This document shows positions 2,310 through 28,505 of a stretch of 64,000 bases of DNA, piece after piece; the first letter of the stretch is position 1; the number at the start of each line of letters is the position of its first letter. Origin of the DNA: an uncultured Actinomycetota bacterium (GTDB lineage: Bacteria; Actinomycetota; UBA4738; HRBIN12); contig CAVXJL010000013.1 in the NCBI GenBank assembly GCA_963762015.1, forward strand, positions 27,709-91,708, in the 5' to 3' direction. The notes under the pieces were generated by a model. The model was not told the DNA's origin and did no database searches. It worked only from the letters and a program-made list of their open reading frames with translations. The translations under genes and the position numbers were made by a program.

Positions 2310-2314
2310 CTACG

Positions 2315-4335: not shown

Positions 4336-4423
4336 CCACCCAGACCGACCTCAGGTGATCCTGGCGGCCGAGTGGTGCGAACCGAAGGGGTGAGGGGTAC
4401 ATGATGCCGATGGGGGTTTCGCC

Positions 4424-5314: not shown

Positions 5315-5320
5315 GCCCAG

Positions 5321-6712
5321 TTAGTCCCGCGGACGAACCCTCGTGCCCTCCGCGGTGTCCATGACCTCGAGGTCCATCGCCTGGAGCTCGTCGCGGAGCT
5401 CGTCCGAGCGCGCGTAGTCCTTCGTCTCCCGCGCCGCATCGCGTTCCGCGACGAGTCTGCGCATCTCCTCGGTCGGCTCCCAGCCGGCCCGCGCCTCCCG
5501 CTCGAGGTCCAGACCGAGGACGTGGTCCCAGGAGGCGAGCAACGCCCGTTTCTCGCCGGGCGGCACCTCGCTCGAGTGATCGAGATCGTTGACCGCTCGG
5601 ACCGCGGACGGCATGTCCAGATCGTTCGCGAGGGCCTCCCGGAAGCGAGCGTCGAAGTCCTTCGCGGCGGCGCTCTGCGGATCGGATGGCTCACCCCACT
5701 CGGCGACGTGACGCCGCAGCTGCTTCATGCGCTGGTCGGCGGTCTCCATCACCTCCCAGGTGAAATCCATCTCCGACCGATAGCGGGTCTGGAAGGTGAG
5801 CCACCGGAAGGCGAGCGGGTCGAGGCCGCGCTCGACCAGCTCCGCCGCGCGGATCACGTTGCCGGTCGACTTCGCGATCTTCTGGCCGGTGAGCCGCAGG
5901 AAACCGCCGTGTACCCAGGTGGAGACCACCTCGTGACCGACCGCGCCCTCGGACTGTGCGATCTCGTCCTCGTGGTGAGGGAACTTGAGGTCGTTGCCGC
6001 CGGTGTGGATGTCGAACCGATCGCCCAGGTACTTCATCGACATCGCGGAGCATTCGATGTGCCACCCGGGGAAGCCCTCACCCCACGGGCTGGGCCACTT
6101 CATCAGTCGCCCGGGTCCCGCCGACTTCCAGAGCGCGAAGTCGGCGGGATGTCGCTTCGCCGGATCCGTCTCCAGGTCGCGGTGCCCTGCCTTCAACTTG
6201 TCCAACGTGTTGCCGGAGAGCTTCCCGTAGCCGGAGAAGCTGGTGACGTCGTAATAGACGGAGCCCGTCTCGACGACGTAGGCGTGCTCTCGCTCGATCA
6301 GCGTGGCCGTGAGGTCGATCATCTCGGGGATGTGGTCGGTGGCCTTCGGCATGATGTCCGGGAGACGGATCCCGACGGCAGCCATGTCGTCGAGCGCCTC
6401 GCGCGTGTACTTCTCGGCGATCTCGAGCGGCTGCAGCCCTTCGTCCTCGACGGCCAACAGCATCTTGTCCACCGCCTCGGGGGAGGACTCGTCCGTCATG
6501 TGTCCGACGTCGGTGATGTTCTGGACCTCGGTGACTTCGTACCCCTCGAACTCGAGCGTTCGCCGGATGAGGTCGGTCAGCATGAACGTGCGGAGGTTCC
6601 CGAGGTGGACGTACCGGTACACGGTGGGACCGCAGGCGTAGATCTTCACCCGGCCGGGTTCGACCGGCACGACCTCCTCGACCTGACGCGAAAGCGTGTT
6701 GTAGAGGCGCAC
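5321..6712 (-). CDS. cysS: cysteine--tRNA ligase (class I aaRS)
   Basis: Class I aaRS with HIGH-like motif (KIYACGPTVYRYVHLGNLRTF) and KMSKS-like motif (KIAKSTGNV). Its 463 aa fits CysS rather than the ~410-aa MshC paralog. Confidence 0.75.
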   Translation of the reverse strand: MRLYNTLSRQVEEVVPVEPGRVKIYACGPTVYRYVHLGNLRTFMLTDLIRRTLEFEGYEVTEVQNITDVGHMTDESSPEAVDKMLLAVEDEGLQPLEIAEKYTREALDDMAAVGIRLPDIMPKATDHIPEMIDLTATLIEREHAYVVETGSVYYDVTSFSGYGKLSGNTLDKLKAGHRDLETDPAKRHPADFALWKSAGPGRLMKWPSPWGEGFPGWHIECSAMSMKYLGDRFDIHTGGNDLKFPHHEDEIAQSEGAVGHEVVSTWVHGGFLRLTGQKIAKSTGNVIRAAELVERGLDPLAFRWLTFQTRYRSEMDFTWEVMETADQRMKQLRRHVAEWGEPSDPQSAAAKDFDARFREALANDLDMPSAVRAVNDLDHSSEVPPGEKRALLASWDHVLGLDLEREARAGWEPTEEMRRLVAERDAARETKDYARSDELRDELQAMDLEVMDTAEGTRVRPRD

Positions 6713-6753
6713 GCGCCAATCCTAGCGGCGGCGGCCGTGCGAACCGGCGCGCA

Positions 6754-9168: not shown

Positions 9169-9248
9169 GGGGACCTCTCATCCGTTCATCGGGAGACCGG
9201 TGTATCGGACCATTATGAGACTTCGAACGGGGAAGATGGGACCCTCGA

Positions 9249-9710
9249 TCAGGTCGGCAGCGGGCGGTCCTCGAAGGGGGTCGACAGGGCGATCGTCGTG
9301 TTCGTGGTGACCCCCGCCTTCTCGCGAAGTCGCCGGATCAGGTCTTCGAGGTCGCCGGTGGTCCTCGTCCGAACCTTGAGCACGTAGTTCGCCTCACCCG
9401 CGACCGAGTAGCAGTCCTCGACCTCCGGGAGCTCACGCACGCGGGCCGGCAGGTCGTCCGGCTGATGAGGGTCCAGCGGGGTGACCGCGATCAGTGCGGT
9501 CACGAAGAGGCCGATCGCCTCCGCGTCCAGGACCGCGCGGTAGCCGCGGATGACCCCTTGTTGCTCGAGCTTCCGGACGCGATCGTGCACCGCGGAAGCA
9601 GACAGTCCCACCTTGGAACCCACGTCCGCGTACGTGGCCCGCGCGTCGTCCTGCAGCGCGGTGAGGATCGCGAGATCGCGCGCATCCAACACTCGAGCAT
9701 GCTCCCACAC
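9249..9710 (-). CDS. Lrp/AsnC family transcriptional regulator
   Basis: N-terminal HTH (LDARDLAILTALQDDARATYADVGSKVGLSASAVHDRVRKLE) plus RAM domain; 153 aa. Confidence 0.85.
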   Translation of the reverse strand: MWEHARVLDARDLAILTALQDDARATYADVGSKVGLSASAVHDRVRKLEQQGVIRGYRAVLDAEAIGLFVTALIAVTPLDPHQPDDLPARVRELPEVEDCYSVAGEANYVLKVRTRTTGDLEDLIRRLREKAGVTTNTTIALSTPFEDRPLPT

Positions 9711-9820
9711 GGTGCGGGGGAGGGAGATATCCCCGGGACGGCCGATTGCTCGGAACGACCGGGTGACGGTACGGTCGCCGTCTCCTCCTCCCGGTTCCCC
9801 CGTGAGGAGATCTCGTCCGT

Positions 9821-10542
9821 TTGGACCGACGCTCGCCGGGGCCCCCGAGGAGGACCGACGACACGGGCCCTCGCTTCGAGCCGGTGGCGAAGCCCGGAGG
9901 CGGCATCCGATGGCTCACCCGGCTCGATCCGGCCGGCGAAGCCGAGTACCGGCAGGTCGTGCATCCGCTCGCCGACCGGATCGAACGAGCGCTCGGCCCC
10001 GAGGCGTTCGCGATCCGGACACGTCCGGCCGCCGACGGAGCGACCCTTGCTCCCTGGACACCTGCGCGGGCCGCCTGGCGAAGGACGTTGCGGAGGGTCC
10101 TCCGCTCGGCGCCACCGGGCACGGCGTTCGCCGTGGCCGACGTCCGCGATTGTTACGGCTCGATCTCGCCCGAGACGATCGCCTCGCTCCTGGGATCGGA
10201 GGCGGACCACGCCGTCGCCTTCATCCGCCGCCTCCAGGATGGCGGCGTGCGCGGCCTCCCGATCGGTCCGGATCCCGTCCGCGGTCCTGGCCAACGCCGT
10301 CCTGGGCGAGCTGGATCGCGCCGTCCGGAGCACGGGCGCCCGGCATGTGCGATGGGTGGACGACGTCGTGCTGTGGGGCGCACGCGCCGAGGTCCGTCGC
10401 GCACTCGACGCCCTCGACGACGTCACGGCGAAGGATGGGTCTCTCGCTCCATGAAGGGAAGACACGACCCGTCGCCGACATCGATGAGGCTCGAGCCGTC
10501 GCGCTCGCTGAGCAGGACTCCTCTATCATCGCGGCTCCGTGA
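9821..10542 (+). pseudogene. reverse-transcriptase-like ORF (RT motifs 1-7, no thumb/X domain), interrupted by two +1 frameshifts
   Basis: Frame 2 carries motif 1 KPGGGIRWLTRLDPAGE...PLADRIERAL, motif 3 FAVADVRDCYGSISPETI and GLPIG. Frame 0 carries SAVLANAVLGELD and HVRWVDDVVLWG (YxDD-like). Frame 1 carries MGLSLHEGKTRPV and stops at 10542, overlapping the next gene's GTG start (GTGA). Confidence 0.55.
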
Positions 10543-12040
10543 GAACCCTTTACCGCGCATCCCGTGTCGTCACGCTCTCCCACCCGACGGTGGGGGAGTG
10601 GCTCCTCGTGGATGAACGCCACATCCAGCGCGTGGGCACCGGCGACCCACCGGAGGCGGACCTCACGATCGAGCTTCCCGGAACCACCATCGTCCCGGGC
10701 TTCATCGACAGTCACGTACATCTCACCGCGACCGGGCGATCGCTCACGAACGGAGACGTCAGGGGATCGACGTCGAAGGAGGGCCTGCTCGGTCTCGTCG
10801 CGGAGCGCTCGGCCGCAGGCACGTCCCTCGTCCACCTGGAGGGCTTCGACGAGTCGAGCTGGGATCGGCCGGACCTGCCCACGGGTGCGGAGCTGGACGC
10901 GCTGACCTCACTGCCCGTCGTGCTGACGAGGACAGACGGACACATCTCAGTGGTGAGCGCCCAGGTGTTCGCCGCCCTCGACCTCACGGATGCGGAAGGG
11001 GTCGAGGTCGAGCGAGGACGGTCAGCCGACGGGTCGCCTCACCAAGGAGGCGAACCGGCGGGTCTCGGCCTGGGTGGAGTCGTCGTACGAGCGTCAGCGC
11101 ATCGAGGAGTTCCAGCTGCAGGCGGCAGGCCTGGCGGCCTCGCGAGGCGTGACGGCGGTCCACGAGATGTCACTCGACGTGTCGGACCTCGACGTCCTGG
11201 TCGGGCATCGAGGGCGGCTCCCGGTCGACGTCTCGCCCGTTCCCGCCTCGATGTCGCTCCCCGAGGCGATGGAGCGAGGCTTCCTCGCGATCGGGGGTGA
11301 TCTCCCCGTCGACGGTTCGATCGGGGCGAGGACCGCCGCGTTCGCGCACCCGTACGAAGACGGCTCGGAACAGGGCGAGCTGTATCACGCCGACGACTCG
11401 CTCGCCGAGTTCTTCCATGCCGGTCACAACGCCGGGCTCCAGGTCGGCGTCCACGCGATCGGGGACCGCGCGATCGAGCAGGTCCTCGAGACCTGGGAAC
11501 GCGTCTACGTCGCTCTCGACTCGCGGGAGCGGCGACACTTCCGAGCCCGGCGTCATCGGATCGAGCACTTCGTCCTCCCATCGGCCGACCAGATCGAGCG
11601 GACCGCGATGCTCGGACTGGCCGTCTCCGTGCAGCCCGCATTCGACAGGCTCTGGGGACAGGGTGGCGGCATGTACGAGGAGCGGCTCGGTCCCGCACGT
11701 GCGATGGCCGCACACCCGATCCGCACGATGCTCGACCGTGGCATAGAGGTCGGCGTCGGTTCCGACTCGCCGGTGACGCCGCTCGATCCGATGCTCGCGA
11801 TCGCGGCACTCGAAGGCCACCACGAACCCTCGCAGCGCCTGACGAGGCTCGAGGCCCTCGAAGCTCCACCGGGTGGGGAGCGCCCGCCTGGGACACCAAG
11901 ACGGCAAGAAGGGGGCACTCGAACCGGGACGTCACGCTGATTTCGCCGCGTACGACGATGACCCCCTCGAGGTCCCGTCCCTGGAAGGCCTCCGGCCCGT
12001 TCTCACGGTCTCCCTCGGTCGCGAGGTCTACCGAGCCTGA
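10539..12040 (+). pseudogene. amidohydrolase-family metal-dependent hydrolase (YtcJ-like), disrupted by two +1 frameshifts
   Basis: N-terminal IVPGFIDSHVHL metal-binding motif. Homology continues in another frame after ~11023 (DGQPTGRLTKEA...HAIGDRA...IEH...GSDSPV). It shifts again near ~11860 (GSARLGHQDGKKGALEPGRHADFAAYDDDPLEV...REVYRA*). Confidence 0.7.
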
Positions 12041-12372
12041 CGGGCCCGCCTCCGGTGTTCTTGGCACTGTTTCTGGGGTTTCGGGTTGTCCTCCCGAGCC
12101 TCGCTCGGTAACGTCCTGCCTGCGTCACCGCCCCGGCGGAGACGCAAGCGGAGCCCGAGAGGCTGAGTAGAGAACGCGGCGCCCCGGCGTCGCGGCCCCA
12201 AAGGTCTCTCGGGCTCTCGCGTTTCCATCTTCCCCTGCCGGGGAACATCCTGAGTCTCCCCAGCGTACTTCCATGGCGAGCGCCGATGAGGCGCCAAGGC
12301 GCGTGCCAAGGCAAGTGGAGGAGCGGACGCTAGAATCCGCGGCCGGATCGAGGACCGAACCCGGAGGAGCAG

Positions 12373-12744
12373 GTGGTAGAGCGCACGGAAGAGCGCGAGG
12401 ACGAGGACGTCGCCGCCGAGGAGGATCTCGACGACCGCGAGCCGACCGAAGAGGACCTGGCGGATGCCGCGGCCACTCCCGCGGACCCTGCGGTCGCCGA
12501 TGTCGAGTCGATCCACGAGGTCCTCGAGAAGCAAGAGGCTCGTGACGACGAGGACGACGCCGACGAGGAGGAGCCGGTGGTTGCCGTCGCCGCGACGACG
12601 AAAGCGGATGACCGGCTCGAGCCGATCGAGACGCGCGTGGTTCCCATCCAGTCGACGGAGTTCGTCTGCAAGAACTGCTATCTCGTGAAACACCGCAGTC
12701 AGCTCGCGGACAAACGGCGGATGTTCTGCCGCGACTGCGCCTGA
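12373..12744 (+). CDS. DUF4193 family protein (acidic N-terminus, C-terminal CxxC...CxxC)
   Basis: GTG start behind GGAGGAG RBS. Asp/Glu-rich N-terminal half. Conserved tail STEFVCKNCYLVKHRSQLADKRRMFCRDCA typical of actinobacterial DUF4193. Confidence 0.7.
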   Translation: MVERTEEREDEDVAAEEDLDDREPTEEDLADAAATPADPAVADVESIHEVLEKQEARDDEDDADEEEPVVAVAATTKADDRLEPIETRVVPIQSTEFVCKNCYLVKHRSQLADKRRMFCRDCA

Positions 12745-14996
12745 CCCAGGACCGGCTGCCGGTCGCGTTCGCCCTCTCCCTGATCGGGGGCGTACTGTCC
12801 TCGCTCGCCTTCCCGCCCGTCGCGGCTTGGCCACTCGCGTTCCTCGCGCCCGCGATCTTGCTCGTCGCGCTGCGCGACGCGACCCCCGCCCAAGGGTTCC
12901 TGCTCGGGCTCGCTTACGGACTCGTGGCGTTCGGGATCACGTTGTCGTGGATCATGCTCTTCGGCTCGCTCGCGTGGGGGGCCTTGACGCTGCTCACCGC
13001 CTCTTCGATCGCCCTGTTCGGCGCCGTGTTCCCACTCGTCCGCAGACCCGGCCGGCCCGTGGTCACCGCGCTCGGTGCGGCCGCCGTCTGGACGACGATG
13101 GACTGGCTCCGAGGACTCTGGCCGTTCGGTGGGTTCACGTGGGGCTCCCTCGGCGTGTCCCAGGTTCCGAACGGGATCACGGTGCGCGTCGCGGTGATCG
13201 CGGGCGTGTGCGGAGTCACGTTCGTGGTGGCGTTCGCGGCGGCGTTGCTCGCGGAGGCGGCCACCCGGGAGCGCTCCCTCGCACGGCGGGCTCGGGGAGT
13301 GGGGATCGCGACTCTCGTTGCTCTCTCGCCGATCGTCATCCCGTTCGCCGACGCCACCGGGCGACCCATCGACGTCGCGGCGATCCAGGTCGACTTCGAT
13401 GATGCCGTCAGGCATGGCTCGAGGGAGGACGGGGACATCGCGGTGACGAGGCTCAACCTCGACCTCCACCAGACGTTGATGGACCAGCCTCCCGATCTGG
13501 CCGTGTGGGGAGAGAGCGCGCTCGACCCCGGGTCCCTCGAGATCCTCGAGGAGGTCCGCGGCACCGTCTCGGAGGTGGGGGTACCTGTCCTCACCGGAGC
13601 TACGAGCCGAGACATCCGGGCCGTCGCCGGAGGCGACGACGGGACGCTGTTCAACCAAGCGGTCGTCTTCGACGGCGGGGGAGCGGTGGTGGACGTCTAT
13701 CGGAAGACCCACCTCGTTCCGTACGGGGAGTACATCCCGTGGAAGGCCGTCGTCGGCTGGATCCCCGCACTCGACCAGATCGCGTACGAGCTCACGCCGG
13801 GGGAGCGGGTGCACACCCTCGAAGTCCCGGGGCTTCCGAGGTTCGCGGCGCCGATCTGCTTCGAGAACAGCTTCCCCGGCCTCGACCGGGAGCTCGTACG
13901 ACAGGGCGCGCAGTTCCTGGTCATCCTCACGAACAACGCGGCCTACGACGAAACGTCCGCCTCCGCGCAACATCTCCAGATGTCGAGGATCCGCGCGATC
14001 GAGAACGGTCGATGGGTGGTGCATGCCGCGGTCTCCGGGATCAGCGCGTTCGTCGATCCGAGCGGTCGCACGTCTCAACGGACCGAGCTGTTCGAACCCA
14101 CACTGATCCGAAGGACGATCCGCGCATCGACCGATCGGACGCTCTACGTGCGCTGGGGCGACTGGCTCCCCATCGCGTCGCTCGCGTTCGCGATCGGGAT
14201 GGCGGCGGTGCCGCGGGGCCGTCGGAACGAGCGTCCCGCACCGGCGCCTCTCGACCCCGGCGCGCGCACCTTGGTGATCCTTCCCACCTACGACGAGGCG
14301 AAGACGATCCGCGAGGTCGTCACCGGTGTGCTGGCGCTGCCGGGGGTCGAGGCCCTCGTCGTCGACGACTCATCGCCGGACGGCACGGCGGGCATCGTGC
14401 GGGAGCTCATGGCGGGGGAGCCGCGGCTTCGCCTCCTGAAGCGTCCGACCAGGTCCGGGCTCGCGAGCGCCTACCTCGAAGGGTTCGACCGAGCGCTCGA
14501 GGAGGGCTTCGACCTGATCGTGGAGATGGATTCCGACCTCTCGCACGATCCCCGCGAGCTCGCCTCGCTGCTCGACGCGGCCCGCGATCGTTTCCACCTG
14601 GTGGTCGGCAGTCGTTACGTGCCGGGTGGGTCCGTGACGAACTGGAGCCGCGCCCGGCTCGCCCTGTCGAGGATGGGCAACATCTACGCCTCCGTGATGC
14701 TGGGCCTACCCCTTCACGACGCCACGAGCGGTTACCGCGTCTACCGCCGCGCCCTGCTCCAAGATCTCGTCGCGGACCCGTTCCACGCCGACGGCTACGG
14801 CTTCCAGGTGGAGCTGGTCATGCGCTCGTGGCTCCGCGGCTGGACGATCGGCGAAGTGCCGATCACGTTCAGGGAACGGGAGCACGGCCATTCGAAGCTC
14901 TCCCGTGGGATCGTGTTCGAGGCTCTCTGGCTCGTGACCCGCTGGGGCGTGGCTCTCAGGGTCCTCGGGCGGCCACATCGGGGCTTCCGCGCCTAA
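12741..14996 (+). CDS. ppm1: fused apolipoprotein N-acyltransferase (Lnt, CN-hydrolase) / polyprenol-monophosphomannose synthase (Ppm1, GT2); start codon uncertain
   Basis: Lnt membrane domain: the frame is open from 12612 and encodes LAFPPVAAWPLAFLA before the listed TTG at 12858. CN-hydrolase domain follows (CFENSFPG). C-terminal GT2 DPM synthase domain (LVILPTYDEAKTI...VVDDSSPDGT...IVEMDSDLSHDP); same two-domain architecture as M. tuberculosis Ppm1. Confidence 0.8.
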   Translation: MTQDRLPVAFALSLIGGVLSSLAFPPVAAWPLAFLAPAILLVALRDATPAQGFLLGLAYGLVAFGITLSWIMLFGSLAWGALTLLTASSIALFGAVFPLVRRPGRPVVTALGAAAVWTTMDWLRGLWPFGGFTWGSLGVSQVPNGITVRVAVIAGVCGVTFVVAFAAALLAEAATRERSLARRARGVGIATLVALSPIVIPFADATGRPIDVAAIQVDFDDAVRHGSREDGDIAVTRLNLDLHQTLMDQPPDLAVWGESALDPGSLEILEEVRGTVSEVGVPVLTGATSRDIRAVAGGDDGTLFNQAVVFDGGGAVVDVYRKTHLVPYGEYIPWKAVVGWIPALDQIAYELTPGERVHTLEVPGLPRFAAPICFENSFPGLDRELVRQGAQFLVILTNNAAYDETSASAQHLQMSRIRAIENGRWVVHAAVSGISAFVDPSGRTSQRTELFEPTLIRRTIRASTDRTLYVRWGDWLPIASLAFAIGMAAVPRGRRNERPAPAPLDPGARTLVILPTYDEAKTIREVVTGVLALPGVEALVVDDSSPDGTAGIVRELMAGEPRLRLLKRPTRSGLASAYLEGFDRALEEGFDLIVEMDSDLSHDPRELASLLDAARDRFHLVVGSRYVPGGSVTNWSRARLALSRMGNIYASVMLGLPLHDATSGYRVYRRALLQDLVADPFHADGYGFQVELVMRSWLRGWTIGEVPITFREREHGHSKLSRGIVFEALWLVTRWGVALRVLGRPHRGFRA

Positions 14997-15029
14997 CGAC
15001 CCGTCCGTCCGTGCGGCTGCCGACGAGAC

Positions 15030-15515
<486 letters not shown>

Positions 15516-15519
15516 CCGC

Positions 15520-15933
15520 ATGGACAACATCACGATCCACTCCAGCTTCCTGCCGCACAACGACCCGGAGGCCTCCTTGGCCTTCTTCCGTGACGTCCTC
15601 GGCTTCGAGGTCCGTATGGACGTCGGATACGAGGGGATGCGCTGGATCACGGTCGGCCCCCCCGATCAGCCGGGTACGAACATCGTCCTCTACCCGCCGT
15701 CCGCCACACCCGGCATCACCGAGGAGGAGACGCGCACCATCGCCGAGATGATGGCCAAGGGCACGTTCGCCAGTCTCCTGCTGGCCACTCCGGATCTGGA
15801 CGCCACATTCGAACAGGTGCAATCCACCGAGGCGGAGATCGTGCAGGAGCCGACCGACCAGCCGTACGGCGTTCGCGACTGCGCTCTCCGCGATCCCGCG
15901 GGCAACATGATCCGCATCCAGGAGCGATCCTGA
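15520..15933 (+). CDS. VOC family protein (glyoxalase/bleomycin-resistance/dioxygenase fold)
   Basis: Paired beta-alpha-beta-beta-beta modules; FFRDVLGFEV...RWITVGP...NIVLY and ...AGNMIRIQE; 137 aa. Confidence 0.8.
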   Translation: MDNITIHSSFLPHNDPEASLAFFRDVLGFEVRMDVGYEGMRWITVGPPDQPGTNIVLYPPSATPGITEEETRTIAEMMAKGTFASLLLATPDLDATFEQVQSTEAEIVQEPTDQPYGVRDCALRDPAGNMIRIQERS

Positions 15934-15957
15934 TCCGCACGGGGGAGGTGGTTCGAG

Positions 15958-16443
15958 ATGGCTGAGAAGAAAACCGCGAAGAAGACCACACGGACGTCCG
16001 GGAAGCGCACCAGCGCGAGCACGTCCGGGACATTCACCGCCGACGAACGGGCCGCGATGAAGGCTCGGGCCCAAGAGCAGAAGGCGGAAGCGCGCGCGAA
16101 CAAGAACAGGGCCGACGGGGAACGCGACCTGCTCGCGGCGATCGCCGCGATGACGGGACGCGATCGCGCCATGGCCAAGCGGGTCCACGCGATCGTCACC
16201 GCTGTCGCGCCGGACCTCTGGCCGAAGACCTGGTACGGGATGCCCGCGTACGCCAAGGACGGCAAGGTCATCTGCTTCTTCCAGGACGCGGCGAAGTTCA
16301 AAGCGAGGTACGCGACGTTCGGCTTCAGCGACGAGGCGAACCTCGACCAAGGCGCGCTGTGGCCAACGTCCTTCGCACTGAAGGACTTGACCGCTGCCGA
16401 AGAGAAGAAGATCGCCGCGCTCGTGAAGAAGGCCGTGCGCTGA
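15958..16443 (+). CDS. DUF1801 (YdhG-like) domain protein with Lys-rich N-terminal tail
   Basis: C-terminal part ([32 protein letters not shown]) resembles YdhG/DUF1801. N-terminus is KKT-rich low complexity; 161 aa. Confidence 0.5.
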
Positions 16444-16445
16444 CT

Positions 16446-18803
<2,358 letters not shown>

Positions 18804-18865
18804 AGGAGGCCACTCGCAAAGCCACCGTGAGACGAGTTCGCTCAGCCGTCCGGCTCGTCGTGCCC

Positions 18866-18893
18866 CTTCCCGATAACGTACATTATGTCACCT
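18866..18893. other. dif-like XerC/XerD chromosome-dimer resolution site
   Basis: CTTCCCGATAA-CGTACA-TTATGTCACCT. The core ATAACGTACATTATGTCA matches E. coli dif ATAATGTATATTATGTTA at 15/18 positions with the 11-6-11 arm/spacer layout. xerD lies ~30 kb away. Confidence 0.55.
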
Positions 18894-19169
18894 TGTCGGG
18901 AAGAGGGCCTCATGACTCTCGCGGACTCTCCCCTCCCTCCCGATCCAAGCTCGGGTCTTGGGCGGTCCCGGGGCGTTCTTGCTTCGGGGCAACGCGGATG
19001 CAAAGCTCGCCTTCGGCCCTGGAGAGAGGGACGTTCGGCGGAAGGCTTCCTTCTTTCGACCGATGTTCCCCTCCCCCGGCACTCGTAGGGTGTGTGGGTC
19101 AACCGGCCGATGGATGGACCGACGCGGATGACCGACCCGCCATGCGTGAGGCGGGACCCAGGAGGGGAC

Positions 19170-20804
19170 ATGAAGAGAGCGAAGCACCGGTCCGGCGCCC
19201 GACGGGGACTCGTTCTCGGGTCGATCATCGTGGCGATGCTGGCAGTGGGACAGGCCGGCATGGTGTTCGCGGGTGCCGTTCCACCGGTCGACTCCCCCGA
19301 GCCTGCGCCGGTAGACAACGCGCAGCCGTCGGTCGGAGTCGTGGAGCCGGTCATCCTCGATACCCGGTCCTCGAACGACGACGACGCCTCCGCCGTGGAG
19401 ACCAGCGACCAACTCCCCCCTGAGATCACCGACCCTGTCCCTCCAGAGGTCACCGATCAACTCTCCGAAGAGGTCACGTCCGTCGATCCGGAAGCCGGCT
19501 GTGGGGAGGACGTCGATCCGGTGACGTGCGACCCGGATGAGACCGACGCCGGCGAGAACATCCCGGTCCACGTCACCGAGGCGGTAGACGAGCCGACCCC
19601 GCCCGATCTGCAGGTCTCGAAGACCTCCGATGCGGACGGGATCCTCCAGGACGGCGACGACTTGCTGTACACGATCATCGTGACCAACGCGGGCGACGAG
19701 GAAGCGACGGGCGTCGAGCTCGTCGACATCCTGCCGCCGGGTGCGCAGGGCGTCACCTTCCCACCGTTCCCGACACTCGCCGGCAAGGCATGCATCGCCA
19801 CCAGCTCCGTGATGCCCGGCGGCGTGCCCCACGCGGAGGTCCGCTGTGGCCGGGTGTCCCTCGATCCGGGCGAGTCGGCAACCGTCACGGTGCGGGTCAT
19901 CATCGACAGCACCTATTGCGGTTCGATCACCAACGTCGTGGACGTCGAAGGCAGGAACGAGCCCGGGGTCAACGTCGGGGATGACAACCACGCCGAAACC
20001 ACAGACGAGGTCGCGTGCGTGCCGAGGATCCGGTTGTCCAAGGGCGGACCTTCGTTCGCGCATGTGGGCGACACGATCACGTATGTGTTGACCGCGAGGA
20101 ACAACGGAAGTGCCCGACTCACGAACATCGACCTTTCCGATCCGGGATGCGACTCGTCCCCCACGCTCGTCGACGACGGGAACGGCAACTCGACCTTGGG
20201 GGTCGGCGAGGTTTGGCGCTTCGAGTGCGACCACACCGTCACATCCTCGGACGGCAACGTCGTCCACAACGTGGCGACGGTCACCGGCGATCATGGGGGT
20301 GAAACCGTCAGGGACACGAACGCCCATGACGTCGACGTGATCCACCCGAGCATCGATCTCGAGAAGTCCGCGACCCCGACCTCCGGTCCGGCCGGCACGC
20401 TCATCGTTTACACCTACATCGTCACGAACACCGGAGACACCCCCCTGTTCGACATCTCCGTGTCCGACGACAAGCTGGGGGACGTGGGTGTCATCGCGAC
20501 GCTCGCGGTAGGAGCGACGGCGGAGCTCACCTCCCAGATCACGCTGGGCTCCTCCCCCATCACCAACGTCGCCACGGCCACGGGCGAGGACCGTCTCGGG
20601 AGAGCTGTCGATGACACGGACTCTGCCTCGGTCACCGTGGTGGCCGGCACAGGCGGTGGAGCCGGCGGCGATGGGACCGGCAGCGGCGGGAGCCCGTTCA
20701 CCGGATCGGACACGGACGGGCTCGCTGCGTGGATCGTGATCCTCGCCGCGGTGGGGTCGGTGCTCCTCCTCACCTCGCGAAGGCGATCGCAAGCGCGCGC
20801 CTAG
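19170..20804 (+). CDS. DUF11-repeat cell-surface protein 1 (signal peptide; C-terminal [ST]PFTG sorting-signal-like motif + TM + basic tail)
   Basis: ATG behind GGAGGGG RBS. Signal peptide MKRAKHRSGARRGLVLGSIIVAMLAVGQA. Repeated ...TYTI.VTNTG... DUF11 modules. C-terminus GSPFTGSDTDGLAAWIVILAAVGSVLLLTSRRRSQARA. Confidence 0.75.
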   Translation: MKRAKHRSGARRGLVLGSIIVAMLAVGQAGMVFAGAVPPVDSPEPAPVDNAQPSVGVVEPVILDTRSSNDDDASAVETSDQLPPEITDPVPPEVTDQLSEEVTSVDPEAGCGEDVDPVTCDPDETDAGENIPVHVTEAVDEPTPPDLQVSKTSDADGILQDGDDLLYTIIVTNAGDEEATGVELVDILPPGAQGVTFPPFPTLAGKACIATSSVMPGGVPHAEVRCGRVSLDPGESATVTVRVIIDSTYCGSITNVVDVEGRNEPGVNVGDDNHAETTDEVACVPRIRLSKGGPSFAHVGDTITYVLTARNNGSARLTNIDLSDPGCDSSPTLVDDGNGNSTLGVGEVWRFECDHTVTSSDGNVVHNVATVTGDHGGETVRDTNAHDVDVIHPSIDLEKSATPTSGPAGTLIVYTYIVTNTGDTPLFDISVSDDKLGDVGVIATLAVGATAELTSQITLGSSPITNVATATGEDRLGRAVDDTDSASVTVVAGTGGGAGGDGTGSGGSPFTGSDTDGLAAWIVILAAVGSVLLLTSRRRSQARA

Positions 20805-20832
20805 CGGGTCCTCACGGACGACCTGAGCACGG

Positions 20833-20862
20833 AGCGGGCCCCTCGGAGGCCCGTTTCGATCT
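20833..20862 (+). terminator. hairpin terminator after DUF11 gene 1
   Basis: CGGGCC-cctcgga-GGCCCG followed by TTTCG. Confidence 0.4.
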
Positions 20863-20888
20863 CTTCTCCCCACCAGCAGGTTTCTGTC

Positions 20889-20917
20889 TTGTGCATTCGG
20901 GGAACTTGCTTCACAAT
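20889..20917 (+). promoter_or_regulatory. putative promoter of DUF11 gene 2 (-35 TTGTGC, 17-bp spacer, -10 CACAAT)
   Basis: The same -35/17/-10 arrangement recurs upstream of gene 3 (23704-23732). Confidence 0.45.
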
Positions 20918-21090
20918 CGGGCTCCTCCGAACGGACTACGCACGTCGGTCCGGATGGAGTCTGGCCATTCGCCCGATGGTCTCCCCCGGGTGAGGAGGAT
21001 ACCGTCGGGCGGAAGGACCTCGTTCTACGCCGTAGGACGTGGGCCCCGTTGATAGTCGATCGACACATGAGATCACCTGGGGAGGTAGAG
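20918..21090 (+). promoter_or_regulatory. conserved ~170-nt 5' leader of DUF11 gene 2 (candidate cis-regulatory RNA)
   Basis: Blocks CCGAACGGACTAC, GGCCATTCGCCCGATGgTcTCCCCCGGGtGAGG, CCGTAGGaCGtGGGCC and GGGGAGGTA (RBS). All are shared with the gene-3 leader and partly with gene 1. Confidence 0.45.
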
Positions 21091-23532
21091 ATGAGAACCA
21101 GAACCGACATGGGACGGGGCCGGCGCGGCAAGCGAGGGCTCGCGTCCTTCGTATCGTTCCTGCTCCTGTTCGCGTTCGCGCTCGGAAGCAGTTCATTGGT
21201 CGCGCTGGCGGACAACGGCGGCGCGAAGGGGAACAAGAAGGCTGTCTCGAGTGATGAGACGCTACCCGTGGCCGAAGCACCGGCCGACGAAGCCCCCGCA
21301 GAGGAAGCTCCGGCCGAGGAAGCTCCCGTAGAAGAGGCTCCGGCCGAGGAAGCTCCGGCCGAGGAAGCTTCCGTAGAAGACACCGACGCGGGAGCCTCCA
21401 CCGAGGGCACCACGCCCACGGGCCGAGCCGCACCCAAGGCCAGCCAGTTCAAGACCGCGAGCGCAGGCCGCGGCGCCGGGATCCTGAGCCACGGTGGACT
21501 CCACGGCGGTGATGTCTCGCTCGACTTCGTCGCAGCCGGACCGTTCACCTACGACCACAGCACCGGCCTGGGCACGCACCCCCAGTTCGGATACGACAAC
21601 CGCACCATCAGTAAGACGAACGGGGTCGTGGAGTCGCTGGAAAGCGGCGACTTCGAGTGCGGTGATCTCGTGACCTTCTTCGTGCAGGTCGTGATCGCTG
21701 AGGATGCAGAAGGCAGCGGCACCGTCGAGCTCGACTTGTCGTTCGGCGCCGAGACCACGGGCCAGCCCGGCCTCGGCTTCGACAACATCGTCAGCTACGG
21801 GATCAACACCCCCGACGACGGCAATGTCGGGAACGTGGGCGACAACGTCGTGACCGCCAGCCCGCCCAACGGGGCCATCGAGACCTCGGGCTACGACGAA
21901 TTGAAGGCGACCCTCACGGTGACCAACCTCGCCCCCGGTGAGACCGCCATCGTTCGAGTGACGGTCCACCTCGAATGCGAGGTCGGGGCCAGCCCGACCG
22001 GCAACATCCTCAATTCGATCGAGGCTGCCCGCGCGGACGGCGAGAGGATCTCCGTCGGACAGCAGACCGTTCCGATGAAGCAGGTCGGTGGGATCGACGC
22101 AGCGCCCGCGATCGATGTCACCAAGGACTGCCCCGCGGCGGTGGGTGCCGGCGAGGAGATCACGTACGAGATCACGGTGACGAACACCGGGAACGTGGAA
22201 CTGACCAACATCACGGTCGTCGACGACATCATCGGCGATCTATCGGGTGAGTTCCCGGACACCCTCGCCGTGGGATCCGATCCCGTCACGGTGGAGGTGC
22301 AGTACACGCCGGCGCCGGCGGACGGCGACCCCGTCACGAACACGGTCACCGCGACCGGCGACTGGGACGCTGGCGAGACCAGCGATTCCGTGTCGGACAC
22401 CGCCGAGTGCACCACGGACATCACCCACGAGCCCGGGATCCTGGTCGTCAAGGAATGCCCAGAGTCGGTGCCGTTCGGTGAGGACGTGACCTTCACGATC
22501 ACCGTCACGAACACCGGCAACGAGGCCCTCGAGAACGTCCTCGTGACGGACGAGCTCCTCGGTGGGGACATCACCGCGGACTTCGACTTCGCGGATCCGT
22601 TCCCGGTGGGCGGCGAAGAGTCAGCCGAGTTCACGTACACGCCGGGACCGAACGAGGACCCGGTGGAGAACTCCGTCACCGCTTCGGGCGACGGTGTGGA
22701 CTCCGAGGTCACCGCGACCTCTACGGACGACTGTGACACCGACGTCATCCACGCACCGGCGATCGAGGTCACCAAGGCCTGTCCGGCTCTGGTGGCATCC
22801 GGTGAGGACGTGACCTTCACGATCACCGTCACGAACACCGGTAACGAGGACCTCGGGAACGTTTCCGTGACGGACGAGCTCCTCGGCGGGAACATCACCG
22901 ATGCCTTCGGATTCGGGGAGACGTTCGCGGCCGGAGCCGAGGTATCCGCCCAGTTCACCTACACACCAGGGGCGGACGAAGATCCCGTGGAGAACTCCGT
23001 CACCGCTTCGGGCGTCGGGGTGCACTCCGAGATCACGGTGACGTCTACGGACGTGTGTGTCACCGATGTCTCGAACCCGGCCATCCAGATCGTGAAGACG
23101 GTCAGCGAAGAGATCGTCCCCGTGGGAACCACGGTGACCTACACCTACGTCATCACGAACACCGGCGACGTGACGCTGTACGACATCAGTGTCGATGACG
23201 ACATCATGGGGCACATCGGGGACATCCCCGTCCTCGAGCCCGGGGTCTCCGTGACCCTCACGAAGGACTTCGTGGTGGGCGACGAACCCGTCCTCAATGT
23301 CGGCACGGCCGTGGGCGAGGACATCCTCGGCCGGGTCGTGAGCGACGACGACGACGCGTTCGTCAGTCCGATCGCCGGCGAGAACCCGCCGAACCCCCCG
23401 AACAACCCCCCGACGCCCTTCACGGGCTCGGACGCGGGCCGGCTCGGGCTCATCACCCTGATCCTGGCCGGGATCGGCGTGACCGTGGTCGCGTCGACCC
23501 GCAGGCGCCGGCCTGAGCGGGAGGCCGCATAA
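21091..23532 (+). CDS. DUF11-repeat cell-surface protein 2 (signal peptide, Ala/Glu/Pro-rich linker, DUF11 repeats, TPFTG sorting-signal-like C-terminus)
   Basis: ATG after GGGGAGGTAGAG. (AEEAP)n low-complexity stretch. Repeated ...VTFTITVTNTGNE... modules. C-terminus NPPNPPNNPPTPFTGSDAGRLGLITLILAGIGVTVVASTRRRRPEREAA. Confidence 0.8.
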   Translation: MRTRTDMGRGRRGKRGLASFVSFLLLFAFALGSSSLVALADNGGAKGNKKAVSSDETLPVAEAPADEAPAEEAPAEEAPVEEAPAEEAPAEEASVEDTDAGASTEGTTPTGRAAPKASQFKTASAGRGAGILSHGGLHGGDVSLDFVAAGPFTYDHSTGLGTHPQFGYDNRTISKTNGVVESLESGDFECGDLVTFFVQVVIAEDAEGSGTVELDLSFGAETTGQPGLGFDNIVSYGINTPDDGNVGNVGDNVVTASPPNGAIETSGYDELKATLTVTNLAPGETAIVRVTVHLECEVGASPTGNILNSIEAARADGERISVGQQTVPMKQVGGIDAAPAIDVTKDCPAAVGAGEEITYEITVTNTGNVELTNITVVDDIIGDLSGEFPDTLAVGSDPVTVEVQYTPAPADGDPVTNTVTATGDWDAGETSDSVSDTAECTTDITHEPGILVVKECPESVPFGEDVTFTITVTNTGNEALENVLVTDELLGGDITADFDFADPFPVGGEESAEFTYTPGPNEDPVENSVTASGDGVDSEVTATSTDDCDTDVIHAPAIEVTKACPALVASGEDVTFTITVTNTGNEDLGNVSVTDELLGGNITDAFGFGETFAAGAEVSAQFTYTPGADEDPVENSVTASGVGVHSEITVTSTDVCVTDVSNPAIQIVKTVSEEIVPVGTTVTYTYVITNTGDVTLYDISVDDDIMGHIGDIPVLEPGVSVTLTKDFVVGDEPVLNVGTAVGEDILGRVVSDDDDAFVSPIAGENPPNPPNNPPTPFTGSDAGRLGLITLILAGIGVTVVASTRRRRPEREAA

Positions 23533-23553
23533 ACACCCGAGAAGCGCGAGCAT

Positions 23554-23590
23554 GGGGCGGGGTCCGAAAGGGACCCCGCCCCTCCCGTTT
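23554..23590 (+). terminator. strong hairpin terminator after DUF11 gene 2
   Basis: GGGGCGGGGTCC-gaaa-GGACCCCGCCCC (12-bp stem, GNRA loop) followed by a T-containing tail. Confidence 0.55.
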
Positions 23591-23703
23591 CTCCCCCAAG
23601 AGACCCCACAGTGGTGGCGAAGGGGAACGCTCAGGCCTCCGTCCAAGCACGTCCACTCGATGGATCCGTCGATCCGTGCTCGTTTTCCACCAGATCTCTA
23701 GTA

Positions 23704-23732
23704 TTGCGCAATCCGGATACTTCCTCCACAAT
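23704..23732 (+). promoter_or_regulatory. putative promoter of DUF11 gene 3 (-35 TTGCGC, 17-bp spacer, -10 CACAAT)
   Basis: Same architecture as the gene-2 promoter. Confidence 0.45.
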
Positions 23733-23907
23733 CGATGTCACCCGAACGGACTACTTCGTCCGCCAGGAACAGTCGGGCCATTCGCCCGATGCTGTCCCCC
23801 GGGCGAGGGATATAGCGTTCGGTAGGCGGACCACGCTCTTCACCGTAGGGCGGGGGCCGCATCTATCGGTCAAGTGAAGCGCACCACACCAGTTGGGGAG
23901 GTACGGG
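23733..23907 (+). promoter_or_regulatory. conserved ~175-nt 5' leader of DUF11 gene 3 (candidate cis-regulatory RNA)
   Basis: Contains CCGAACGGACTAC, GGCCATTCGCCCGATGcTgTCCCCCGGGcGAGG, CCGTAGGgCGgGGGCC and GGGGAGGTA. Confidence 0.45.
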
Positions 23908-26900
23908 ATGGGAACCAGATCCAATGGGGGGCGTAGTCGCGGCACCAAGCGGGGACTCGCTTCGTTCGTATCGTTCGTTGTGCTGTTCGCGCTCGCGCTC
24001 GGACAGGGCAGCTCGTTGATCGCGTTGGCGGACGACGCCAGCCGCAGCACGGCACTTCCGTCGGCGCAGCCGACCGGTGCGGCTCCGTCCACCGACCAAG
24101 TCAGTGGCGACACAGGGACCTCGTCTGACGACGGGGCTTCCACGACGTCTCGGACAGCGCCCAAGGTCAGCCAGCGGAACACCGCAGCCGCTGGACGCAC
24201 CGGTGCGCTTGCGGCCCCCCCGAGCTCCGGGTTCGACGGCGGGGACATCAGCCTCGACTTCGTCGCGGCCGGTCCCTTCACGTACAACCACGACACGGGA
24301 GTCGGCGGCGCCTACAACAACCGTACGATCAGCAAGACGACGGGTGTCGTGGAGTCGCTGGAGGGCGGCGACTTCGAATGCGGTGACCTCGTGGTGTTCT
24401 TCACGCAGGTCGTCGTCGACAACGGCGCGACCGGCACTGGAAGCATCGACATCGACTACGCGTTCGGCGCGGAGACGACCGGCCAGCCGGGGATCGGCTT
24501 CGACGACATCGTGAGCGTCAGCGTGAACACCAGCGACTCGGGCAATGTTGGCCTGGAAGGCACCGAGACGGCCACGCTCATCGCCGAAGGCACCGGAACG
24601 ATCGGTGGCAGCGACGCGGTCACCGGCACCGTTCGGGTCACCGGGCTCAACGCCGGCGAGCACTTGATCGTCCGCACGGTCGTGCATCTCGGGTGCGATG
24701 TCGGCGCCTCTCCGACCGGCAACATCCAGAGTGCGGTTCCTGCCGCAAGGGTTGTCCTGCCGGAGGCGGACACGATCTCCGTCGGCAACCAGACGATCCC
24801 GTTCAAGAAGGTCGAGGACGTCGCGCAGCCGGGCATGAACGTCACCAAGACGTGTCCTGCGTTCTCTCAGGTCGGCGACGTCATCACCTACAGCATCTCG
24901 ATCCAGAACACGGGCAACGAGACACTCAACATCACGAGCGTCGTGGACACGGTGAACGGCCACAGTCCCGTGAACATCACGGCCTCGTTCCCGGCAACGG
25001 TCGCGGCCGGAGCCACGGTCACCAGGACCTACGAGTACACGGTGGTGGCCGCCGATCCGGATCCGCTGCCGAACTCGGTGACGGTGACGGCCAAGGGAGC
25101 CGTCTCGCAAGTGACGCTGACCGGATCCTCGTCCTGTGAGACCGACATCCTCAACCCCGACATCAAGGTCACCAAGACCTGCACGGACTTCGCGCAGGTC
25201 GGTGACGTGATCACCTACACGATCACGGTCGAGAACACCGGGGACGAGACCCTGAACGGCGTGACCGTGATGGACTCCTTGCTCGGGAACCTGTCGGGCT
25301 CCTACGACGACGTGTTCTCCCCAGGCGAAGAGGAATCGCACGACTTCACCTACACGGTCACCGAGAACAGCCCGGACCCGGTCCCGAACACGGTGACCGC
25401 CTCGGGCACGGGTGCCACCTCCAACGACACCGTGACCGACACGGCGTCGTGCTCCACCGACATCCTCAACCCCGACATCAAGGTCACGAAGACCTGCACG
25501 GACTTCGCGCAGGTCGGTGACGTGATCACCTACACGATCACCGTCACGAACACGGGTGATGAGGACTCTCGAGGGCATGACCGTCGATGACACGCTGCTC
25601 GGCGACCTCTCGGACGACTTCGCCGACACGTTGGCGGCCGGTGACTCGGAGTCCCACGACTTCGACTACCTGGTCACCGAGGACAGCCCGGACCCGGTCC
25701 CGAACTCGGTGACCGCGACGGGCACGGGCGTGACCTCGGAAGAGATCGTGGATGACACGGCGCGGATGCTCGACGGAGATCCTCAACCCCGACATCGATG
25801 TCACGAAGACCTGCACGGACTTCGCGCAGGTCGGTGACACGATCACCTACACGATCACCGTCACCAACACGGGTGATGAGGATCTCGAGGGCATCACCGT
25901 CGATGACACGCTGCTCGGCGACCTCTCGGACGACTTCGCCGACACCTTGGCGGCCGGTGACTCGGAGTCCCACGACTTCGACTACCTGGTCACCGAGGAC
26001 AGCCCGGACCCGGTCCCGAACTCGGTGACCGCGACGGGCACGGGCGTGACCTCGGAAGAGGTCGTGGATGACACGGCCGGATGCTCGACGGAGATCCTCA
26101 ACCCCGACATCGATGTCACGAAGACCTGCACGGACTTCGCGCAGGTCGGTGACACGATCACCTACACGATCACCGTCACCAACACGGGTGATGAGGATCT
26201 CGAGGGCATCACCGTCGATGACACGCTGCTCGGCGACCTCTCGGACGACTTCGCCGACACCTTGGCGGCCGGTGACTCGGAGTCCCACGACTTCGACTAC
26301 CTGGTCACCGAGGACAGCCCGGACCCGGTCCCGAACTCGGTGACCGCGACGGGCACGGGCGTGACCTCGGAAGAGGTCGTGGATGACACGGCCGGATGCT
26401 CGACGGAGATCCTCAACCCCGACATCGATGTCACGAAGACCTGCACGGACTTCGCGCAGGTCGGTGACACGATCACCTACACGATCACCGTCACCAACAC
26501 GGGTGATGAGGATCTCGAGGGCATCACCGTCGATGACACGCTGCTCGGCGACCTCTCGGACGACTTCGCCGACACCTTGGCGGCCGGTGACTCGGAGTCC
26601 CACGACTTCGACTACCTGGTCACCGAGGACAGCCCGGACCCGGTCCCGAACTCGGTGACCGCGACGGGCACGGGCGTGACCTCGGAAGAGGTCGTGGATG
26701 ACACGGCCGGATGCTCGACGGAGATCCTCAACCCCGACATCACGGTGACCAAGTCGTGCCCCGAGTCGGCGACGGTGGGTGACACGATCACCTACACGAT
26801 CACCGTGACCAACACGGGTGATGAGGATCTCGAGGGCATCACGGTCGAGGACTCGTTGCTCGGCGACCTCTCAGACTCCTTCGCGGACACGCTCGATGTG

Positions 26901-27836
26901 GAGGAATCGGAGTCGCACGACTTCACCTACACGGTTACCGCCCAGAGCCCGGACCCGGTCCCGAACACCGTGACCGCTTCGGGCACGGGAGTGACCTCGG
27001 AAGACACCGTGACCAACACCACGTCGTGCTCCACGGACGTGCTCTTCCCGGCGATCAACATCGTCAAGGACGGGCCGGCCCTCGTGCACCGGGGCGACAC
27101 GATCACCTACACGTTCGAGGTCACCAACCCCGGTGAGGTCGAGCTGTTCGACGTCGAGCTCTCCGACCCGATCTGCGACGAAGGCACGATCGAGCCCGGT
27201 GAGGACGTGGACTCCAGCCTGGCGGTCGGCGAGGTGTGGCACTTCACGTGCCTGCACCTGGTCACCGACGAGGACCCGGACCCGATCCCGAACACCGGGA
27301 CCGTCCGTGGCGACACGGAGGAGGGCGAGGGTGGCGAAGAGGTCGAGGACAGCGATGACCACCTGGTGGACATCATCAACCCCGGCATCGACATCCTGAA
27401 GACCGTCGACGAGGAGATCGTCCCGATCGGTACCACCGTGACGTTTACCTACGTCGTTACCAACACCGGCGACACCACGCTGTATGAGATCAGCGTCGAC
27501 GACGACATCCTGGGTCACATCGGGGACATCGCCGTCCTCGAGCCGGGGGACTCCGCCACGCTGACCAAGGACTTCGTGGTTGGTGACGAGATCGTCACCA
27601 ACGTCGGCACCGCGACGGGCGAGGACGTCCTCGGTCGCTCGGTGAGCGCCGATGACGACGCCACCGTCACTCCGATCGCCGGTGAGAACCCGCCGAACCC
27701 GCCGAACAACCCCCCGACGCCCTTCACGGGCTCGGACGCGGGCCGCCTGGGCCTCATCACGATCGTCCTGTTCGGGATCGGCGTGACCGTGGTCGCGTCG
27801 ACCCGCAGGCGCCGGCCGGAGCGTGAGGCCGCGTAA
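23908..27836 (+). pseudogene. DUF11-repeat cell-surface protein 3 (~1300 aa if corrected); two +1 frameshifts at ~25568 and ~25757 inside a tandem-repeat array
   Basis: Signal peptide and N-terminal domain homologous to gene 2. Reading continues in frame 2 (25556-25837) and frame 0 (25752-27836). The C-terminal ~150 aa and TPFTG+TM+RRRR tail are almost identical to gene 2. Confidence 0.7.
25132..27021 (+). repeat. tandem array of ~6 x 315-bp units (each one 105-aa DUF11 module); 3-4 central copies essentially identical
   Basis: Unit CSTEILNPDIDVTKTCTDFAQVGDTITYTITVTNTGDEDLEGITVDDTLLGDLSDDFADTLAAGDSESHDFDYLVTEDSPDPVPNSVTATGTGVTSEEVVDDTAG repeats with period 315 bp (e.g. 26077, 26392, 26707). 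Flanking copies are diverged. Confidence 0.85.
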
Positions 27837-27853: not shown

Positions 27854-27900
27854 GGAAAGGGGGCGGGATCCCAACCGGGATCCCGCCCCTTTCCTTCTCT
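27854..27900 (+). terminator. hairpin terminator after DUF11 gene 3
   Basis: GGAAAGGGGGCGGGATCCC-aacc-GGGATCCCGCCCCTTTCC followed by TTCTCTT. Confidence 0.5.
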
Positions 27901-28368: not shown

Positions 28369-28505
28369 CGCTGCGCCTCCTTGCCGCGGGCGACCTCCCT
28401 CGGCCGCCTCTGTCACCGAACATCGGCATCAGGCGGCCCGGCTTGAGACAGAACTGGTCAAAGATGACTAGGAGCACGTACCTGTGAAGAGGTAGCGGGA
28501 GCGCG

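Follow-up and report, generated by a model that had tools for sequence, protein, structure and literature searches.

Does a surface-protein gene that carries perfect 315-bp tandem repeats and is broken twice by +1 frameshifts record real events in the history of its bearer, or faults in the assembly from which it is known? The gene lies in a window (the whole stretch of DNA analysed) of 64,000 nucleotides from an uncultured Actinomycetota bacterium, positions 27,709 to 91,708 of contig CAVXJL010000013.1, and is the last of three co-oriented genes built from CLIPPER domains (formerly DUF11/DUF7507); we call it gene 3. Reconstructed by removing one C at position 25566 and one G at position 25762, it occupies 23908..27836 (+) with about 1308 codons. 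An earlier note on this DNA offered three readings of the locus, namely a collapsed or mis-polished repeat, real slippage that inactivates the gene by phase variation, and a recently expanded array, and expected the number of repeats to vary in the population. We find that the array, as far as sequence comparison can tell, is real and homogenised by concerted evolution, probably via recombination between repeats, and that the two insertions probably arose as errors in the consensus of a metagenome assembled from long reads.

The anatomy of the array is clear. Tandem Repeats Finder reports a single array at 25140-27011 with a period of 315, 5.9 copies, 91% matches and 0 indels counted, and slicing and alignment of the units place its extent at 25130-27021; the two methods together confirm the 315-bp tandem repeats with diverged flanking copies that the earlier note had described. 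Each 315-bp unit codes for one 105-aa DUF7507/DUF11 module. An exact period-315 self-match 664 bp long defines a perfectly periodic block of 979 bp, or 3.1 units, at 25763..26741 (+), which consists of units 3-5 and the first 35 bp of unit 6. Units 3-5 (25761/3..26706, +) are mutually 100% identical and serve here as the core unit. To this core, unit 1 (25130..25444, +) is 78% identical, unit 2 (25445..25760, +), which contains the first insertion, 96.5% identical plus the extra base, unit 6 (26707..27021, +) 82-84% identical, with only its first 35 bp the same, and unit 7 (from 27022, +) about 75% identical. Identity across 944-979 bp between flanks at 78-84% is far beyond chance. Two of the three starts previously given for identical units, 26077 and 26392, are right; the third, 26707, begins the diverged unit 6, and the third identical unit starts instead at 25762. 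Unit 2 is a hybrid of its neighbors, resembling unit 1 at 13 diagnostic sites, mostly in the first ~80 bp, and unit 3 at 64 thereafter; the part like unit 1 spans ~80-100 bp at its 5' end, the remainder resembles units 3-5, and 15 private substitutions separate it from the core unit. Such a make-up is the pattern expected at a putative recombination boundary.

Orthologous loci show how such arrays behave across related lineages. The nearest proteins among 5.8 billion clusters (P0001, P0002 and P0003) come from ENA metagenome assemblies with contigs named contig_N, and the cluster members P0121 and P0124 gave two further loci, so that five orthologous contigs were available (L001, L002, L003, L006 and L007); a scan of genome contigs returned only relatives at 56-57% (L004 and L005). 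All the orthologous loci are syntenic with the window, with Lnt, three CLIPPER genes, a CAP-domain gene, GcvPB/PA and so on. Every one of them carries a perfectly periodic stretch, of 1019-1902 bp against the 979 bp of the window: a block of 1902 bp that is identical in L001 and L006 (6.04 x 315 bp), a block of 1537 bp in L003 and L007 (4.97 x 309 bp), and in L002 a pair of arrays, each built from a further unit type (2.8 and 3.2 x 315 bp). Both types amplified in L002 correspond to units that are single in the window, units 1 and 6, the unit 6 type being tripled there. Within a lineage the units are 100% identical and between lineages they are 74-89% identical, at a synonymous divergence (dS) of the flanking genes of 0.21-0.25 for the window and L003 and 0.5-0.8 for the window and L001 (overall range 0.21-0.83). 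Between L003 and L007, contigs of different samples with 99.72% identity, gene 3 has nine differences, and in five of the nine a synonymous GGC>GGT change recurs at intervals of exactly 309 bp, once per unit. Because this one change sits in all five units, the array is best explained by concerted evolution, with recombination between repeats as the mechanism that we infer. The idea of a recently expanded array is thus supported by the perfect arrays in all orthologues, and can be sharpened from expansion to ongoing homogenisation.

The array itself might still be a product of assembly, with its copy number collapsed or expanded or its units made identical by polishing. Assemblers struggle with perfect repeats of 1-2 kb, polishing can average copies, and the indels of gene 3 stand right at the edge of the array; consensus polishing may also have made the units look somewhat more alike than they are, which counts against taking their perfect identity wholly at face value. 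Nevertheless, independent samples agree, both in L001 and L006 with the same 1902 bp and in L003 and L007 with the same count and one difference fixed in all units, the edge units of the window retain their private differences, and a typical long read is longer than an array of 1-1.9 kb. Copy number is about 4 in the window (3 perfect and 1 near-identical unit) and 5, 6 and 3+3 in the other lineages, and it is equal within the near-identical pairs, 6/6 in L001/L006 and 5/5 in L003/L007, which argues against random assembly collapse. An array made by the assembler is therefore improbable in our estimation. The expected variability in copy number finds support between related lineages (3-4, 5, 6 and 3+3) and none within the two near-identical pairs available.

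The earlier note had placed +1 frameshifts near 25568 and 25757, and both anomalies are present as described. The first is the extra C at 25566 in GAGGA[C]TCTCGAG (25561-25573, +), which moves the reading from frame 1 to frame 2; the second is the extra G at 25762 in ACGGC[G]CGGATG (GGC[G]CGGATG spans 25759-25768, +), which moves it from frame 2 to frame 3 and directly borders the perfect block on its 5' side. Uncorrected, the gene falls into three open reading frames (ORFs) on the plus strand. ORF A (23893..25590, frame 1, 565 aa) holds the signal peptide, the N-terminal tip domain and 2.4 CLIPPER_2 domains, and meets its stop codon 24 nt past the first insertion; ORF B (25556..25837, frame 2, 93 aa) holds in-frame CLIPPER_2 sequence between both insertions; and ORF C (25752..27836, frame 3, 694 aa) holds the remaining repeats and the C-terminal anchor, with no signal peptide. 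With C25566 and G25762 deleted, a single uninterrupted ORF of 1313 codons results. The start of the listed ORF is a TTG at 23893, and the ATG at 23908 agrees with the starts of the orthologues.

That the two insertions are errors is argued indirectly, first by a second gene of the window, which offers an internal calibration. The amidohydrolase gene (Amidohydro_3; 10545..11974, +) has two single-base insertions of its own, at ~11013 and ~11859, which take the reading from frame 3 to 1 to 2 and lie outside homopolymers. When these two and one further insertion in the L001 copy are removed, the window and L001 align over 475 stop-free codons with a ratio of nonsynonymous to synonymous substitution rates (dN/dS) of 0.06 at a dS of 0.68, and the L006 copy is intact at 482 aa. 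Three independent hits on a gene so constrained are improbable, so its insertions are likely errors. The pairs of near-identical contigs, each pair drawn from different samples, tell the same story and differ mostly by single-base insertions outside homopolymers. L001 and L006 (99.09% identical) have 27 and 5 single-base insertions respectively, and the amidohydrolase gene, GcvPA and the 5' end of gene 3 are broken by insertions in L001 only, not in L006. L003 and L007 have 3 and 2; two of those in L003 break gene 2 and CAP2 and the third trims the called N-terminus of GcvH by 3 aa, and the L007 copies are intact or longer. The insertions of L001 cluster where mismatches do, in the region of CLIPPER genes 1 and 2, which suggests trouble with the consensus where strains were mixed. 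Set against L006, L001 (at 6800-7800) packs about 20 single-base insertions and 66 mismatches into 2 kb of that region, where its consensus looks poor.

Downstream of the breaks no sign of decay is seen in gene 3 itself. Its following 694 codons contain no stop, its repeats are still perfect, and its C-terminal part has a dN/dS of 0.26-0.31 against the orthologues, as is seen between intact orthologues. Across four assemblies all the frame-breaking events are insertions and all lie outside homopolymers, which looks like a technical signature and not the usual mutational spectrum, given that spontaneous frameshifts in bacteria favor deletions and homopolymer tracts. Long-read metagenome assemblies of the Flye type are known to retain indel errors that split genes, though usually homopolymer deletions; the events seen here are like those errors in that single-base indels break conserved genes in one of two near-identical assemblies, and unlike them in being overwhelmingly insertions outside homopolymers.

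Several observations weigh against reading the insertions as errors. The four frame-breaking insertions of the window fall in just two genes, two in each, a distribution more like that of pseudogenes, where multiple lesions accumulate too, than of uniformly random error; about 50 other genes of the window were checked with Pfam/NCBIfam and tblastn and found intact, with only the amidohydrolase gene also broken. Substitutions private to unit 2 lie close to the two sites (25548, 25579 and 25745), with another at 25630, and such single-nucleotide differences should have anchored reads, which weakens an argument from ambiguous polishing. The kinship of the window with the Flye-style ENA assemblies is, moreover, inferred from relatedness only. 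A scan of metagenome contigs for the unit 2 motif, with or without the extra C, found no match, and neither did exact look-ups of three proteins of the window, namely those of the CAP-domain gene (27916-28368), of Lnt (12834-14996) and of ORF C.

The confinement of the lesions to two genes and the private substitutions of unit 2 would fit a recently inactivated allele, in which both insertions are real and the gene yields a secreted fragment of 565 residues, consisting of the tip and 2.4 stalk domains, with no anchor. Adhesin genes are often lost or truncated, and truncated, released adhesins are known in other bacteria. What speaks against such a knockout is that no decay is seen downstream (694 stop-free codons, dN/dS 0.26-0.31, perfect repeats), that like insertions occur in the amidohydrolase gene alongside a dN/dS of 0.06, that such insertions are specific to one assembly in both near-identical contig pairs, and that all the events are insertions outside homopolymers where a bias to deletions and homopolymers would be usual. 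We regard a genuine knockout as unlikely, and hold consensus error to be the probable origin of C25566 and G25762. Of the first of the three readings offered earlier, then, mis-polishing is the best supported account of the indels, on the evidence of the amidohydrolase gene and the contig pairs, and the collapsed copy number is not supported (6 versus 6, 5 versus 5).

The second reading, that of slippage, fares worse. Among surface adhesins phase variation is a classic feature, and the breaks do lie inside a repetitive gene, so that a reversible slipped-strand mutation toggling the adhesin might be imagined. Yet inspection of both sequence contexts found no homopolymer or short tandem repeat tract at C25566 or at G25762, and the two independent +1 events total +2, with no compensation between them. 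Unit length, at 315 bp, is a multiple of 3, and gain or loss of units can therefore never alter the frame. Among the six loci, moreover, no on/off pair is found except for assembly-specific insertions at unrelated positions. Phase variation is accordingly very improbable, and what survives of the slippage proposal is a recent knockout of a non-reversible kind, with the low likelihood given above. Programmed +1 ribosomal frameshifting through both sites is less credible again, to the point of being almost negligible: it has in its favor that each shift is +1 and that open, coding frames follow, but neither site has a slippery or hungry-codon motif, the orthologues code for the same protein in a single frame, and the extra bases are absent from the identical units 3-5.

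Some further observations concern where the insertions occur. Four of the sites, 25566, 11859 and 11013 in the window and 1303 in L001, have CTCGAG or (C/G)TCGA no more than 10 nt away. CTCGAG occurs 105 times in the window, the motif being common in its codon usage, and a motif- or methylation-linked error of base calling may operate at these sites, an association noticed post hoc. Two more single-base insertions specific to the window as compared with L003 are found at 28396 and 28413, 17 bp apart, in the spacer between the CAP-domain gene and GcvPB. Further broken genes were also sought with a plot of third-codon-position G+C by frame, which flagged many abutting frames; Pfam/NCBIfam and tblastn resolved these into separate complete genes, among them those for a UvrA-like protein, AroA, prephenate dehydrogenase, NAD kinase, RecN, XerD, CTP synthase and CysRS.

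What kind of protein would the restored gene make? Its N-terminus is basic and then hydrophobic, as in a signal peptide, and is followed by a linker rich in Ser, Thr and Ala. The signal peptide predicted by inspection, MGTRSNGGRSRGTKRGLASFVSFVVLFALALGQGSSLIALA (23908..24030, +), recurs in gene 2 and in the orthologues. Next comes an N-terminal "tip" domain of ~210 residues (24223..24858, +), which is hypervariable between lineages and has no match to a Pfam family. It is present in 116 of the ~125 homologues retrieved and so represents a large family; it was modelled as a generic beta-sandwich with a mean predicted local confidence (pLDDT) of 65.7 and a structural similarity to its best match in the PDB of at most 0.45 (TM-score). 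Its position at the end of the protein is what suggests that this domain may be an adhesive tip. Against Pfam the reconstructed protein matches DUF7507 (PF24346) with 349.5 bits, where the cut-off is 27, in 9 stretches, overlapped by matches to DUF11 (PF01345) with 175 bits and to TIGR01451 with 232 bits in 9 stretches. The last two CLIPPER_2 domains (27022..27690, +) are diverged from the core and are 86-91% conserved between lineages. The protein ends in a sorting-like signal (27711..27833, +), composed of PPTPFTGSD, a hydrophobic helix and RRRR, with the same tail in genes 1 and 2, and its sequence reads ...NPPTPFTGSDAGRLGLITIVLFGIGVTVVASTRRRRPEREAA. An NCBIfam search (E<0.01) matched no LPXTG hidden Markov model to this tail, and a non-exhaustive scan of the ORFs of the window turned up no sortase. 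PFTG bears a putative resemblance to the class E LAXTG/LAFTG sorting motifs.

The repeat units can be placed in a characterised family. DUF11 and DUF7507 have been renamed CLIPPER and CLIPPER_2 in Pfam; these CnaA-like domains build the stalks of fibrillar adhesins and contain an isopeptide bond between a Lys and an Asn of the same chain, and in PDB entry 9IFR the bond is formed between K715 and N806 with D748 (Costa et al. 2025, PMC12617251). In 15 aligned units from the window and the orthologues K9, D42 and N80 are invariant, the spacing from Lys to Asp is 33, equal to that of K715 and D748, and a profile built from the units matches 9ifr_A with E=8.6e-5, aligning K9, D42 and N80 (in VVK, ND and VNKVT) with K715, D748 and N806. 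At the level of sequence, therefore, the units are CLIPPER_2 domains, and like other members of the family they stand in tandem in a surface protein and carry a Cys pair, which has been reported in about one third of such domains (PMC12617251). They differ from 9IFR, a domain of a Gram-negative Acinetobacter adhesin with an OmpA-like anchor, in being of the shorter CLIPPER_2 type and in belonging to a Gram-positive-type protein with a PFTG tail, and their bond is predicted from sequence. Taken together, these features make gene 3 probably the gene of a secreted, wall-anchored fibrillar adhesin.

The closest known class is that of the Periscope-type fibrillar adhesins, for example SasG/Aap, Rib, Sgo_0707, Esp and CdrA, in which related genomes have different numbers of repeats and the high DNA identity of the repeats is proposed to drive intragenic recombination (Whelan et al. 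2021, PNAS, PMC8201768). In these proteins the stalk joins an N-terminal functional domain to a C-terminal anchor. Gene 3 shares with them tandem stalk domains that are identical or nearly so at the DNA level; its tip is a candidate binding domain, its tail a candidate surface anchor, and its repeat number differs between lineages. It departs from them in that its stalk domain is CLIPPER_2/DUF7507 (DUF11 has 0 mentions in the main text of PMC8201768), that different unit types and lengths (315 versus 309 bp) are amplified in different lineages, that the two near-identical pairs show no variation in length within a lineage, and that its host is a soil-type uncultured Actinomycetota known from metagenomes only. 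An extended rod formed by the repeats, as in the Periscope class, is a prediction. A CLIPPER_2-stalk protein of an uncultured Actinomycetota is thereby added to the Periscope-like adhesins.

Tandem repeats in other Gram-positive surface proteins, such as those of the alpha C/Rib family and the M proteins, undergo concerted evolution, and gene 3 shows the same identity within a genome, divergence between genomes, substitution carried in all copies and hybrid unit at the boundary, a pattern that for gene 3 is documented from metagenome contigs only. No new mechanism is implied, and the finding is real but largely ordinary. Its value is that environmental data have given unusually clean evidence for ongoing homogenisation of repeats, in one change found in all five units and in the unit types of sister lineages, and that a frameshift at the edge of a perfect repeat, when met in a contig of a long-read metagenome, should first be suspected of being an error.

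In the picture that we propose, a stalk of nine CLIPPER_2 domains with the Lys-Asp-Asn signature would hold a variable tip away from the wall. Unequal crossing-over or gene conversion between the repeats would keep the units identical, and as a consequence lineages would come to differ in which unit type they amplify, in how long it is and in how many copies they have. By analogy with the Periscope proteins the array may set the length of the stalk, and gain, loss and replacement of modules would then change both its length and its surface, and the PFTG tail would be processed by a sortase-like enzyme. The insertions, which lie at the 5' edge of the array where its units are heterogeneous, would be consensus errors, and the organism would make the full protein of 1313 residues. 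The roles in adhesion, in stalk length and in sortase anchoring are thus all put forward as predicted functions.

The tip domains vary out of step with the genes around them. Between the window and L007 they are 61% identical, where the flanking proteins are 93-100% identical, and between the window and L002 they are 92% identical against 64-77% in the flanks. The gene 3 tip of L007 (10322-10900) is closer to the tips of gene 2 (73-76%; the gene 2 tip of the window lies at 21505-22086). These mismatches suggest, on sequence comparison, that alleles may have been exchanged both between lineages and between paralogues. One sample, ERZ25039586, yielded both L002 and L006, that is, two related lineages with gene 3 alleles of 3+3 and of 6 units and with different tip types; the L002 contig is short, and many of its genes are broken. 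A bolder proposal would take the whole three-gene CLIPPER cluster as a locus of adhesin diversification, in which recombination swaps tips and amplifies lineage-specific stalk modules and the frameshifted allele is a real anchor-less variant that releases its tip. We give this little credence; were it true, the ligand bound, the distance of projection and attachment would vary at the level of populations in an uncultured soil actinobacterial lineage.

The two paralogues of gene 3, identified with Pfam/NCBIfam, precede it on the same strand: gene 1 at 19092..20804 (+), with 570 aa, and gene 2 at 21049..23532 (+), with 827 aa. All three genes end with (S/T)PFTGSD, a hydrophobic helix and RRRR, and genes 2 and 3 have near-identical signal peptides and near-identical last 60 residues. 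Gene 2 contains a 15/30-bp repeat coding for (EAPAE)n near its N-terminus (21274-21369) and two diverged 324-bp CLIPPER units with 76% matches (22484-23170), and no perfect array is present in it. The spacer upstream of gene 3 measures 360 bp. After the gene 3 stop a G+C-rich hairpin (27857..27892), terminator-like on both strands, precedes a convergent CAP-domain gene (27919-28368, -), and the terminator hairpin is common to the two genes. This gene and a second CAP-domain (PF00188) gene at 32321-32782 (+) are paralogues, ~43% identical, that bracket the glycine-cleavage genes. Directly upstream of the CLIPPER cluster, at 16467-18803, lies a gene for a UvrA-like ABC ATPase of ~780 aa, whose score stays under the equivalog cut-off for UvrA and whose length falls ~130-160 aa short of the canonical protein; its product is probably a class II UvrA paralogue, and the gene is conserved in L003 and L007.

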